Shown here: piece by piece, positions 13,763 to 24,105 of the stretch | Position numbering within the stretch: position 1 is the stretch's first letter | Layout of the letters: each line of letters starts with the position of its first letter | Source: Candidatus Scatovivens sp. | Lineage (GTDB): Bacteria > Bacillota > Clostridia > TANB77 > CAG-508 | Length of the DNA: 64,000 nt | Reading direction: 5' to 3' | NCBI GenBank assembly: GCA_045646345.1 | Contig: JAZRKN010000005.1 | Coordinates: 56,737-120,736, forward strand | Made by a program: the position numbers and the translations under genes | Notes under the pieces: generated by a model | What the model was told of the DNA's origin: nothing | Seen by the model: the letters and a program-made list of their open reading frames with translations, nothing else | The model's database searches: none

Positions 13763-14464
13763 TTATTCAAATTCTCTATCATCTGATGTTTTTTCTGGTT
13801 GTTTAAAAGCTATAATATTTGCAGTTGGAGTCGGTTGAGAAACTTGGGCTGCAAATTCTTCTCTTCTTTTATCATTTTTTTCATCTATAGGTTTTTGGTT
13901 TACATCATAATTTAATAATTCTTTATTTAATGCATCTACTTCTTTTTTGGCATGTCTTGCCAATGGATCTTTTTTAAATGCTCTTTTAAATTTTCTACCA
14001 TTAGTTACATGCATAGAATCATATTCTGCAGATGGTGGTGCTGGTTTAATATTTTCTATACACTTTGCGACGTGTTCCATTAAATGGTTAAAATCTTCTG
14101 GACTATACATTAGTCTTGCATATTCTAGAATTTCACCAATTTGCAGCTCAAACATCATATTATTTCCAATAACAGTTTGATTTAAGATTTCTCCATTTTT
14201 CTCTACAGTGATTCTTGCAGCTCTATAAGCAATCTCGTAGTCTGAAAGAGACATTGTTTCTACTTTTACATGTTTTCCACTTTCAGTTTCATGCTCAACA
14301 GTTGGTAAATGTTTAGCATAATCAAAGTCAGGTGGATATAACCATGAATTTAAATGGTCACTAGCAGCTCTTTCTGGAGTTTTAAACTCGGATTTATGTT
14401 TTTCTGGAATTACAGGATCGTTTTTAAATTTTGAATGTATTTTTCTTAAATTATTTTCACTCAT
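13763..14464 (-). CDS. Hypothetical soluble protein downstream of a yybP-ykoY-like riboswitch
   Basis: Start moved to ATG 14464 (MSENN) after AAGGAGG; no recognisable domain; ends EKTSDDREFE. Confidence 0.75.
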   Translation of the reverse strand: MSENNLRKIHSKFKNDPVIPEKHKSEFKTPERAASDHLNSWLYPPDFDYAKHLPTVEHETESGKHVKVETMSLSDYEIAYRAARITVEKNGEILNQTVIGNNMMFELQIGEILEYARLMYSPEDFNHLMEHVAKCIENIKPAPPSAEYDSMHVTNGRKFKRAFKKDPLARHAKKEVDALNKELLNYDVNQKPIDEKNDKRREEFAAQVSQPTPTANIIAFKQPEKTSDDREFE

Positions 14465-14600
14465 AATAAAATTCCTCCTTAAATACAAAAACAAATTTAG
14501 ATTTATACTAAATTTGTCTATTTATTTTTATATGCATTTAAGGGATACGAGACGTAATCTAGTATAAACATTTTTATTTTTATCTTTATCTTTATCTTTA

Positions 14601-14686
14601 GTAAGTCTCATATTTTAAAATAGCACCAGGTACTGATTCCGGTTGTTGATGCCATTCCATACTAAGTATGGTTATTACTCCCTTAC
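14601..14686 (-). ncRNA. yybP-ykoY (Mn2+)-like riboswitch aptamer, copy 1
   Basis: GUAAG-GGAGUA-AU ... AAUGGCAUCA-ACAACC-GG..CC-UGGUGCUAUU ... AU-GAGA-CUUAC; promoter TTGACT-17-TATACT (14721-14693); leader terminator before the SD. Confidence 0.75.
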
Positions 14687-14877
14687 AAGTATAGTATAAC
14701 ATAGTTGACCATAAAAGTCAAATTATGTAAATGTTTGCGGAGCTATCAATAAAAAGATTTACATTTTATGTAAACAGTGATAGAATATAATTAAGATACA
14801 AAATATAGCTGCCTTAAATGTACGAAATTCGCATTAAGAGGTTTGCATGCCTCGTGATATAATTATCGGAGGAAAAA

Positions 14878-15195
14878 ATGATAGAAGATAAGATATTAAA
14901 CATTATTATAGTTTTATTTGTGATTTGTGCTTTTTTGGAAATATACAGGGTTAAATCCTTGTGCTCTGATTATCAGAAGGCAAAAATAAAAGAAGAAACG
15001 ATATTAATCATTATGTTTATTTTAATGTTGATTTGTTTTGCTTTGGCAATAATTCTACTTTTAAATGTCATTTCAGGTATTGATATCGGATACTTGTATG
15101 ATTCCAATGTTATTTCAAAAAATAATGCTTCAAATCCAAATTTTGTAGCTTATTATGATCCGGCTACAAAAACGGTTAGGTATCGAGCACAATAA
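14878..15195 (+). CDS. Hypothetical 2-TM membrane protein (solitary cassette A)
   Basis: GGAGG SD; promoter TTTACA-17-TAGAAT (14758-14786); terminator 15227-15260. Confidence 0.7.
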   Translation: MIEDKILNIIIVLFVICAFLEIYRVKSLCSDYQKAKIKEETILIIMFILMLICFALAIILLLNVISGIDIGYLYDSNVISKNNASNPNFVAYYDPATKTVRYRAQ

Positions 15196-15433
15196 AAATT
15201 AAACTCTATGCAGCTATGTATATCGTGAGCTGAAGGGGCTAACTCTTCAGTTCTTTTTTTGTAAAATTATTTGAAAATTTGCTGTGCAAAATTATGTGCA
15301 GATTCGTTAAAAATGAAAATGACTGAAAAACAATAAAAAATGAGTAAAGTCTTAAACTTCACTCATATCAATAAATATAGCAGTTTGGAAAATAATAAAA
15401 AAAGATGAAAAAGGTTAACTTTTTCATCTTCTA

Positions 15434-15508
15434 TGGTGACCCCTACGGGAATCGAACCCATGATTCCACCTTGAGAGGGTGGCGTCTTAGCCGCTTGACC
15501 AAGGGGCC
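15434..15508 (-). tRNA. tRNA-Glu (anticodon CTC)
   Basis: GGCCCCTTGGTCAAGCGGCTAAGACG-CCACC-CTCTCAA-GGTGG-AATCATGGGTTCGATTCCCGTAGGGGTCACCA; cloverleaf with encoded CCA. Confidence 0.96.
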
Positions 15509-15663
15509 GTATTTGTCAGCTATTTATTTATAACATATTTTTATTTTTTAGTCAATAACTTAAATGATTAAAATTAATAAATAGACTTTAAAAAATAATA
15601 GAAATCTTTTTTACCTTGAAAATTGTGTTTGAGTGTGATATAAAAAAATTATGAGGTGATTTT

Positions 15664-16158
15664 ATGGAAGAAAAAAAAGTTGGAAAAAGAGAAGATTATA
15701 TATCATGGGATGAATATTTTATGGGGATAGCAATGCTATCTGCTGAAAGAAGTAAAGATCCAAATACTGAAGTAGGAGCTTGTATTGTTAGTCAAGACAA
15801 TAGAATATTATCAATGGGATATAATGGGGCTCCAAGAGGATTACATGATGATAAAATGCATTGGAATAGGACTGGATCTTTTACAGAAACTAAATATGCA
15901 TATGTATGTCATGCTGAGCTTAATGCTATATTAAATTATAGAGGGGATTTAAGTAATTCAAAAATATATGTAAAATTATTCCCTTGTAATGAATGTGCAA
16001 AAGCGATAATACAAGCTGGAATAAAAGAAGTTATATATAAAGAAGATAAATATAAAGATGCTGACAATGTAATTGTTTCAAAAGCGATGTTAGATTCTTG
16101 CGGAGTAAAATATACACAATATGAATCAACAGGAAAGAAAATTACATTAGAATTATAA
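15664..16158 (+). CDS. dCMP deaminase family protein
   Basis: SWDEYFM, RSKDP, GYNG, HAELNA and PCNEC. Confidence 0.93.
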   Translation: MEEKKVGKREDYISWDEYFMGIAMLSAERSKDPNTEVGACIVSQDNRILSMGYNGAPRGLHDDKMHWNRTGSFTETKYAYVCHAELNAILNYRGDLSNSKIYVKLFPCNECAKAIIQAGIKEVIYKEDKYKDADNVIVSKAMLDSCGVKYTQYESTGKKITLEL

Positions 16159-22478: not shown

Positions 22479-22533
22479 AAAATTTTTATAATATTTATTT
22501 AATATAAGATGTATTAAATAAATAAAAAAACAC

Positions 22534-22610
22534 AAAAAAATAAGCCCTGAAAGGCTTGGTATAACTACAGTATAGAGCACGAATTTTGTTACTAAAAAAA
22601 CTCACGTACT
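22534..22610 (-). ncRNA. Candidate small RNA divergent from 6S
   Basis: Promoter TTGCTT-17-TATAAT with extended TG (22645-22617), stem-loop, terminator AAGCCTTTCAGGGCTTATTTTTTT; no plausible ORF. Confidence 0.4.
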
Positions 22611-22801
22611 TATCTTATTATACCATATTTTTGAAGAAAAAGCAAATATTCAAAAGGTGCGAAATAGTTAGAAAAACAGTAATAAAACCTGGATATGTGA
22701 AGTATAGAGATATAGTTATAATAATTGGAGAATATTAGATTTGAAAATGGGGCTAAAATGTGTTAAAATAAATATAGTAAAAGTTAATAAGTTTTTAATT
22801 T

Positions 22802-22986
22802 TCCCTGCGTAGTGCGTATAGGCAGAATTTTTAGAACCTACAAAGTTTTGGATAAGGGAGCCCGAACTCCGGATATGGCGTGTATGCTTGCATTTATGTG
22901 AGAAACCCAGGAATATTTGGGAAGGCACCCACCTGTGTGAGTACAGGTCCATAAAAATTCTTTCATCTACGGCTTAGACGTGGGGT
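22802..22986 (+). ncRNA. ssrS: 6S RNA
   Basis: GC-rich rod with paired ends CCCTGCGT/ACGTGGGG and the Bacillota 6S motifs GAACC, GGGAGC, GGCACCCACCTG..CAGGT and ACGGC; U tract follows. Confidence 0.88.
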
Positions 22987-23043
22987 TTTTTTTGTGCTTA
23001 TGAATGTTGACATAAAACTGAAACGTGTGATATAATAGTTAAT

Positions 23044-23128
23044 GTAAGGGAGTAATTACCATATAATTTATGGAATAAAGTCAACAATCGGAATAAAACC
23101 TGGCTTTATTTTAAAAAATGAGACTTAT
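23044..23128 (+). ncRNA. yybP-ykoY (Mn2+)-like riboswitch aptamer, copy 2
   Basis: GUAAG-GGAGUA-AU ... AAUAAAGUCA-ACAAUC-GG..CC-UGGCUUUAUU ... AU-GAGA-CUUAU; promoter TTGACA (23007) and TATAAT (23031); leader terminator about 23175-23215. Confidence 0.75.
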
Positions 23129-23256
23129 CTTGGAAATGTATCAAGTAAGTCGAAAATATAAAATCTTAATAATTATAGACTTATTTGGTATGACGCTAGA
23201 TAGGCCTATTTTTTTATAAACAAAAACCTTATAAAATATTTTAGGAGGAATGTAGA

Positions 23257-24105
23257 ATGATAACTTTACAACACACATTAGTAACATTAATGGGGTTAAG
23301 AGGAAACGAAAGAGAAATGGATGAAGAAATGCAATATGTGTTATTACCAGATGCAATTAGAAGATATTGTGGACCTAGACAATATAGTCACTTTGAACAA
23401 GCTTATGATGGAAGCGATGTATCTTGGTTTAAATATCCATTAGCTTTAAAAGGATTAACTAAAGAAGAAGTTGATAGATTACCAAAACATATTGTTTCTG
23501 AAATCAAAGAATGTGATTTGGGTGAGACAACAAATATAGGAGTATTTGAAGAACATAATACTCATTTGCCACCAAAATATTTTGCAGGAGTAAAAAAACA
23601 TTTAACACAAGATTTTATATTTGATAGATTTGTAAGAGAAGAAATTGATTGTTCAAAAATGTATGATAAAAAATATGCTTTTAATGGTCAAGAATATGAC
23701 GGAAAAGGTATAAGAGGTGTAATTGCTGATATAGAACATCATGGAGTTTATGTATTAGCATATATGTTAAATAAAGCTTATGGAATTACAGTTAATCAAG
23801 AATGGTTTGATAAACATGTAAAATCAATATTAGACGAAAAATATCCAGAAGAATTAGCTGAATCTGCATATGGATTTATGAAAATAAAACCAGAAATTAA
23901 TGAAAGAATAACAAATGGAGATTGGACTCATTTAGAAGAAGGTCCGCTTCCATTAGAAAAATACATAAAAATGTATGAAGAAGTAATTAAAGAAATGCCT
24001 AAAATAGATTATGATAGAAAAGTTGCAGAAGATAGAATTGCACAAGGAAAACCAGCATTTGAAGATAAAAAAGAAATTACGACTCATGAAGAAATTGCTG
24101 AATAA
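23257..24105 (+). CDS. Hypothetical protein, possible Zn-dependent phospholipase C-like metal hydrolase
   Basis: SD AGGAGG; N-terminal H, LLPD, R..SHF and G...HL..D..F motif spacing. Confidence 0.65.
   Translation: MITLQHTLVTLMGLRGNEREMDEEMQYVLLPDAIRRYCGPRQYSHFEQAYDGSDVSWFKYPLALKGLTKEEVDRLPKHIVSEIKECDLGETTNIGVFEEHNTHLPPKYFAGVKKHLTQDFIFDRFVREEIDCSKMYDKKYAFNGQEYDGKGIRGVIADIEHHGVYVLAYMLNKAYGITVNQEWFDKHVKSILDEKYPEELAESAYGFMKIKPEINERITNGDWTHLEEGPLPLEKYIKMYEEVIKEMPKIDYDRKVAEDRIAQGKPAFEDKKEITTHEEIAE

Follow-up and report, generated by a model that had tools for sequence, protein, structure and literature searches.

Three-way-junction yybP-ykoY riboswitches as probable divalent-metal switches of non-transporter genes in a Candidatus Scatovivens lineage

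Riboswitches of the yybP-ykoY family usually precede genes for transporters of Mn or other divalent cations, although such a target is not a strict requirement of the family. Why, then, do two leaders of this appearance stand in front of two genes for soluble non-transporters in a Candidatus Scatovivens genome, of the CAG-508/TANB77 group of Clostridia? We examined this question in a 64,000-nt stretch of DNA (hereafter the window; contig JAZRKN010000005.1, positions 56,737–120,736), which lies on contig C5 of a host genome of 1.79 Mb (28% GC, 97% complete) and whose best public matches are gut and bovine gut metagenomes. A first-pass annotation had read the two leaders as an expanded, repurposed metal-responsive regulon or as a variant-ligand class. 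Our own reading, which we consider probable, is that each leader is a yybP-ykoY aptamer of the three-way-junction form which binds Mn2+ (perhaps also Ca2+) and switches on the transcription of a non-transporter gene.

The aptamers lie at positions 14601–14686 (−; copy 1) and 23044–23128 (+; copy 2), where the motifs quoted in the first-pass annotation were located. They share 79% identity over 86 nt (E = 4e−14, BLASTN against the 1.79-Mb genome) and the same three-way-junction form, which in copy 1 comprises P1.1/L1/P1.2, P2, and P3.1/L3 with a 2-bp P3.2. In both copies P2 is present and the P4 helix is absent, with a UUAAA linker in its place, as the annotation had suggested. The compensatory differences that it described between the two P3 stems are likewise real, and P1.2 also covaries between the copies (AUA/UAU versus AUU/AAU). 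In a model of P1.1, P1.2, P2, and P3.1 covering 13 related copies from six genomes, 99.6% of 271 cells were paired, compared with only 27–44% in slid-register controls. Double-sided changes occurred in 7 of the 21 pairs, a result matched by 0 of 500 shuffles; such shuffle counts overstate the significance, the copies being related, but the slid control still holds. Both window copies have the L1 internal loop GGAGUA/(G)AGA between P1.1 and P1.2, the metal-coordinating C-A of L3, and the P3.1 C-G pair above L3. All 29 parsed non-transporter copies retained L1, CAACA, CUGG, and GAGAC, and all but one of them the UAAA linker (28 of 29).

The closest described counterpart of this form is the Streptococcus pneumoniae mgtA riboswitch, for which PMC6649816 reports a three-way junction, P4 replaced by UNAAA, invariant C-A in L3 and AGA in L1, and transcription activated by Mn2+ more than by Ca2+. 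The window leaders share with mgtA the UNAAA in place of P4, GGA in L1 with a 3′ GAGA, the L3 C-A, the A-minor C-G pair, and a downstream terminator; they differ from what that text describes in having soluble non-transporter targets, several copies per genome, AU-rich helices, and a P3.2 of 2–4 bp. The L1 and P3/L3 consensus of the four-way-junction Mn2+ riboswitches in RF00080 (Lactococcus lactis yoaB, Escherichia coli mntP, and Xanthomonas oryzae) also aligns with the window copies, in which the counterparts of the L3 metal ligands, C40-A41 of L. lactis (PMC6649816), are kept. Unlike those members, the window copies lack P4, and their L3 reads ACAAYCG, against the family consensus ACAUACU given in PMC12153347. 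With the core features in register and the subtype matching mgtA, the membership proposed in the first-pass annotation stands: by every sequence feature tested, the window leaders are yybP-ykoY riboswitches of the three-way-junction mgtA subtype.

Rfam searches found no yybP-ykoY match in the window, in the 9-kb span, or genome-wide (RF00080, 0 matches). When copy 2 (141 nt queried) was aligned to RF00080, it scored 13 bits (cut-off 45; E = 0.053), with L1, P2, and P3/L3 in register and nothing placed in the P4 region of the model. In a control, 0 of 20 pattern-matched loci reached the RF00080 cut-off, and 17 of these 20 were transporter-linked. Because all 17 transporter-linked relatives were also missed, the failure reflects a gap in the model and is no argument against membership; the absence of a significant score, which literally contradicts the first-pass proposal, is therefore uninformative. 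The scores of the window copies against our own model R1 (89 and 78 bits) follow by construction and carry no evidential weight. The aptamer-core pattern was found at at least 119 GTDB loci, and among the 119 listed the downstream genes, named by BLASTP against Pfam-named representatives, were MntP (55), P-type ATPase (39), GDT1 (9), Na/Ca exchanger (4), ABC ATPase (3), TerC (2), phospholipase C (PLC)-fold (1), PfkB (1), and other or cut off (5), with transporter-type genes at 112 of the 119 loci. About a dozen longer pattern matches probably carry a P4. The aptamer itself is a known RNA form; it is the set of targets that is new and lineage-limited.

Each aptamer is preceded by a predicted sigma-A-type promoter, namely TTGACT-17-TG-TATACT at 14693–14721 (−; 10/12 consensus) for copy 1 and TTGACA-18-TG-TATAAT at 23007–23036 (+; 12/12 consensus) for copy 2. 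Both promoter-like sites end 7 nt upstream of the aptamer, suggesting that the aptamer probably begins at +1. Promoter scans give equally many sites in shuffles, and the weight of these sites rests on their position and conservation. Folding placed U-tailed hairpins 50–80 nt downstream of the aptamers; the predicted terminators are a hairpin with a U tract at 14481–14519 (−; −8.8 kcal/mol) in copy 1 and a U-tailed hairpin at 23175–23215 (+; −10.7 kcal/mol) in copy 2. A simple terminator scan called neither of them, so that of the promoter and leader terminator annotated earlier for each copy, the promoter-like sites were recovered, whereas the terminators were recovered by folding but not by the scan.

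A switch strand able to pair with either the P1 3′ strand or the terminator 5′ arm occurs at 14549–14562 (−) in copy 1 (duplexes of −8.1 and −6.5 kcal/mol; p at the 0.01 floor of 100 shuffles) and at 23138–23151 (+) in copy 2 (−11.5 and −12.8 kcal/mol), the latter containing the UAAGUC that had been noted to face two GACUUA segments. A terminator was found in 27 of the 29 leaders examined, and in 25 of these 27 the dual-complementary strand beat all 100 shuffles. The free fold of copy 1 (−44.9) contains the anti-P1 helix and the terminator, corresponding to OFF, and the fold with P1 forced (−37.1) contains the antiterminator, corresponding to ON. In nascent transcripts with P1, the terminator arm was sequestered in 25 of 27 leaders. 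Transcriptional ON logic, as in mgtA, is likely for both leaders. Without metal, the switch strand would capture the nascent P1 3′ strand and the terminator would form; with metal, docking of L1 and L3 would hold P1, the switch strand would pair with the terminator 5′ arm, and the polymerase would read through. The expression platform of copy 1 also contains an AAAGAT tandem repeat (14570–14600, −), which differs by one unit in the relative G371; this repeat makes the anti-P1 hairpin loop longer and could modulate switching.

The gene behind copy 1, ORF1 (13763–14464, −; ribosome-binding site [RBS] at 14474–14480), encodes a soluble orphan of 233 amino acids with an acidic C-terminal tail. ORF1 belongs to a small family of 16 proteins, and was found in 5 of 75 genus genomes, with the leader present in all 5. 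It has no Pfam match over the cut-off and no hydrophobic segment. Its structure model (pLDDT 84) gave nothing in Foldseek at E 0.001. Pur-alpha/PC4-like rows appeared at Z 4.0–4.6 in a wide search in which all Z scores were 5.0 or less, and were not taken as an assignment.

The gene behind copy 2 (23257–24105, +; RBS at 23243–23248) encodes a soluble protein of 282 amino acids with a predicted phospholipase C/P1-nuclease fold. Homologues of similar length number 139, and clustering at 50% gives 262 clusters; neither the protein nor its homologues match a Pfam family over the cut-off, and for PF00882 the best E was 0.011, in 1 of 59, with no match in 40 distant homologues. With a structure model of pLDDT 95, its six top structural matches among 48,161 chains all belong to the PLC/P1-nuclease superfamily (Z 6.7–5.2; next row 3.9), with about 150–160 aligned residues at 8–11% identity. 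M1, H6, D32, H45, H115, D119, and D123 are conserved in 87–88 of 88 homologues, and this invariant N-terminus, His, Asp, His, and His-x3-Asp we take to resemble the metal ligands of the superfamily. We offer as a prediction that the protein is a metal-dependent phosphodiesterase. The superfamily, represented in Pfam by Zn_dep_PLPC, includes the Bacillus cereus PLC (1ah7), the Listeria PLC (8cqm), and S1 nuclease (5fb9); unlike these, the copy 2 target has no signal-like hydrophobic stretch (the maximum 19-residue Kyte-Doolittle values of the two window targets are 0.56 and 0.76) and no Pfam match over the cut-off. Of the earlier description of both targets as soluble unknowns, the solubility is upheld for both, and "unknown" still fits ORF1 but no longer wholly the copy 2 target. 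Atlas searches yielded no usable match, and a PDB sequence search returned nothing.

The two window copies are not alone. The host genome has four P4-less copies, namely the two in the window, one before a 396-amino-acid orphan (C14), and one before a PfkB kinase (C15), all four preceding non-transporter genes. A fifth, P2-less copy (C15:21728–21817, −) precedes a UMPH-1/HAD-type nucleotidase-like gene and a P-type ATPase. The mntP gene (C15:242108–242680, −) and the Na/Ca exchanger gene (C7:34633–35616, +) of the host have no riboswitch directly upstream; near-identical mntP genes of the relatives G005 and G045 do have one. A model built from 49 sequences found matches in 37 of 68 genus genomes, with up to six per genome, and on these counts, together with the downstream genes listed, the expanded regulon proposed in the first-pass annotation holds. 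From these and other matches we parsed 56 distinct aptamers, 50 from genus loci (part of 74 listed matches) and 6 from GTDB pattern matches: 9 were P2-less, 16 were P4-less before transporters, and 31 were P4-less before other genes, namely PLC-fold (7), PfkB (6), ORF1 (3), DapA (2), and, for the rest, orphans. The riboswitch precedes all 6 close PfkB orthologues. The 9 P2-less aptamers (L162–L166 and L183–L186 among them) precede P-type ATPase, HAD, or alpha/beta-hydrolase genes, the P-type ATPase operons often having a UMPH-1/HAD nucleotidase-like or alpha/beta-hydrolase gene at their head; Alx-like P2-less aptamers are described in PMC12153347 as limited to Enterobacteriales. A family-wide model search gave matches in 28 of 150 genomes, and the 21 loci parsed comprised 17 transporter genes, 2 tail-bearing orphans, 1 unassigned gene, and the PfkB gene of the host genome. 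With the host's own locus set aside, 17 of 20 loci had a transporter, and such targets were seen in most other genera of the family. The mostly transporter targets across the family suggest that the expansion is largely confined to one sub-lineage.

Non-transporter targets have a precedent in Bacillus subtilis yybP, described in PMC13598126 as a Mn-riboswitch-controlled lipoprotein gene and no known transporter; the window proteins are unrelated to it and form a cytoplasmic-looking set in one lineage. A literature search for yybP with ribokinase/PfkB targets or yybP-ykoY with phospholipase C targets found none, and the target tables of the 2015 founding papers may list such cases; none was found on riboswitches of this lineage in titles and abstract starts. 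In two genomes (L159 and L160), the DHDPS/DapA-family gene has a P4-less Mn-type riboswitch 230–260 nt upstream, with a small ORF in between. In three genomes, four copies counted above among the orphan cases (L011, L012, L014, and L169) are followed first by a conserved gene for a peptide of 27–31 amino acids, acidic at its start and amphipathic-looking at its end, and then by different larger ORFs.

The history of the copies can be traced at the PLC-fold gene, which occurs in 26 of 75 genus genomes and has the riboswitch in 7 of those 26. The seven riboswitch-bearing genes form one group (support 88/73), and the locus of a close outgroup (L202) has the same promoter and no riboswitch, which points to one insertion. 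At 7 of 9 tested loci of riboswitch-less PLC-fold homologues a 6S RNA was present, and we infer that it marks the ancestral locus of the gene. On this scheme, a PLC/P1-fold gene already present behind the 6S RNA would have acquired a transporter-type copy between itself and its promoter; the derived promoter-aptamer-terminator module would then have been duplicated to the PfkB kinase, ORF1, and other lineage-specific genes, with selection keeping the copies, while the P-type ATPase operon would have kept its own P2-less riboswitch. All 18 derived aptamers fall into a single clade (98/95). Aptamers are 85–94% identical while their targets drop to 35–72% in most pairs; for ORF1 orthologues at 35–39% protein identity, the aptamers are 86–90% identical. 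Upstream of distant PLC-fold homologues (L192, L194, L205–L207, and L209–L212), another short conserved leader replaces the Mn riboswitch. It is made up of two hairpins ahead of the RBS, the first of them small and of GNRA type, has no Rfam match in the scanned loci, and is possibly an undescribed cis-regulatory motif.

Several results weigh against the reading of the leaders as Mn2+-responsive ON switches, or against its individual parts. The Rfam score lies far under the gathering cut-off. P3.2 is only 2–4 bp, and several derived copies have 2–4 extra bases in L3, so that binding could be weakened or retuned. The free minimum-energy fold of copy 2 already has the antiterminator and no terminator, forcing P1 removes the terminator in just 8 of 27 full-length leaders, and nascent transcripts without P1 also sequester the terminator arm in 11 of 27. 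Because equilibrium folding is equivocal, switching would have to be kinetic and co-transcriptional; the ON logic annotated earlier is favored by complementarity (25/27) and by the folding of copy 1, whereas the equilibrium folding of copy 2 is not clean. As for the fold of the copy 2 target, the PLC/P1 matches have Z scores below 8 and root mean square deviations of 4.3–5.3 Å, Foldseek returned nothing at E 0.001, and in profile-profile comparison with PF00882 members the probability was 5%, with a best E of 4e−4 in a hidden Markov model search (~20 proteins). The support for a single origin at the PLC-fold gene is unstarred, and the order of events is unrooted.

One alternative is that the copies before non-transporters have shifted their specificity to a different divalent ion (Ca2+, Fe2+, or Zn2+), a retuning that would account for targets with no relation to Mn export. 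For the mgtA aptamer, binding is tighter with Ca2+ than with Mn2+, whereas activation is greater with Mn2+ (PMC6649816), and odd gene associations of yybP-ykoY riboswitches are noted in PMC7266159 and PMC3766115, the former, a review, expecting metal-altered variants behind them. The non-transporter copies, with their short P3.2 and L3 insertions, also group apart from the transporter copies; however, this split is weakly supported (74/0), none of the 29 copies has a change in any named metal-site base, and the L3 loops of both window copies are also seen in front of P-type ATPase (4 matches) and Na/Ca exchanger (1 match) genes. We therefore regard retuning as unlikely. Nor is the variant-ligand class raised in the first-pass annotation supported: the L1, L3, and A-minor bases are all kept, the window loops also occur before transporters, and the loss of P4 is a described subtype. 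An altered ligand is unsupported because all the metal-site bases are kept.

The leader might instead be a portable strong-promoter-plus-attenuator cassette that spreads among fast-evolving orphans, in which the sensing of metal would be vestigial or a side effect and the likeness of the copies would stem from recent copying or conversion. The GTTGACATAA promoter is common to the non-transporter copies, some same-genome copies before different genes cluster (97/87 and 99/77), aptamers within a genome are as alike (0.90) as those before the same target (0.90), and copy 2 is predicted to be leaky at equilibrium. Against this, expression platforms follow the target (identity 0.77 for the same target versus 0.71 otherwise), monophyly of the copies by target could not be rejected (p-AU 0.11 and 0.12), diverged platforms still show compensatory changes and the three-way complementarity, and at the ancestral locus (L202) the promoter is present without a riboswitch. 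Old duplication and vertical inheritance under selection, with occasional conversion, fit these data best, and we judge a mere cassette to be quite improbable. That the leaders are a protein-bound attenuator or a mobile repeat merely resembling yybP-ykoY is very improbable indeed: the gathering score is not reached, but this is equally so for the 17 transporter-linked copies, the Rfam alignment holds L1, P2, and P3/L3 in register, and among the matches listed the motif precedes MntP, TerC, GDT1, and P-type ATPase genes across Bacillota.

The surroundings of the leaders are ordinary. The ~8 kb between them holds unrelated genes outside the feature and without such a leader, which by Pfam or by reading of the ORF list are deaminase-, HAM1-, LytTR-, RecN-, cell-wall-hydrolase-, sigma-factor-, and radical-SAM-like, together with an ordinary tRNA gene (15437–15508, −). 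An ordinary 6S RNA gene (22799–22990, +; Rfam 81.3 bits) lies upstream of copy 2. In public RNA runs, contigs of relatives were matched over small shares, mostly over the 6S RNA, and one end near an aptamer was uninformative.

What the targets may have in common is their C-terminus. At least three Asp/Glu residues occur among the last eight in 23 of 26 complete targets versus 13% of 1,511 crudely called ORFs, a count from which one doubtful target was left out, in which two rows are second genes, and in which family members are not independent. Large orphans of the host genome with similar acidic-Arg tails lie at C6:44755, C15:271383, C14:94852, C14:96143, and C1:15567. The GTTGACATAA promoter was considered as a genome-wide mark of tail proteins and rejected (2/12). 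It is possible that the acidic-Arg tail is an address label or export tag. No secretion system for the acidic-tail proteins was established in the host genome, where one FtsK-family match and weak T2SSE-family matches were found. An isolated VirD4/TraG-like coupling-protein gene is present at C11:129170–131231 (+); its match is interrupted by one stop, and no conjugation genes are evident nearby. Why a metal should induce these genes is a matter of speculation; two of the targets are predicted to be phosphoryl enzymes that use divalent metals. A bolder view, which we put forward as improbable though not fanciful, is that this sub-lineage made a Mn-export switch into a divalent-metal-triggered regulon of acidic-tail, possibly exported enzymes and effectors, among them the PLC/nuclease-fold hydrolase, the PfkB kinase, and orphans, with the metal serving as an environmental cue rather than as a toxicity alarm and with a selectivity that may have been retuned.

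Structurally, then, the aptamer is nothing new, and it shows that a common Bacillota subtype is missed by Rfam. Its history can be followed from the recruitment of a riboswitch by one gene to its spread into a multi-gene regulon. The natural L3 and P3.2 variants bear on whether yybP-type RNAs sense ions beyond Mn2+. If the switches work as proposed, they would give a metal-linked role to several orphan families of an uncultured gut lineage.

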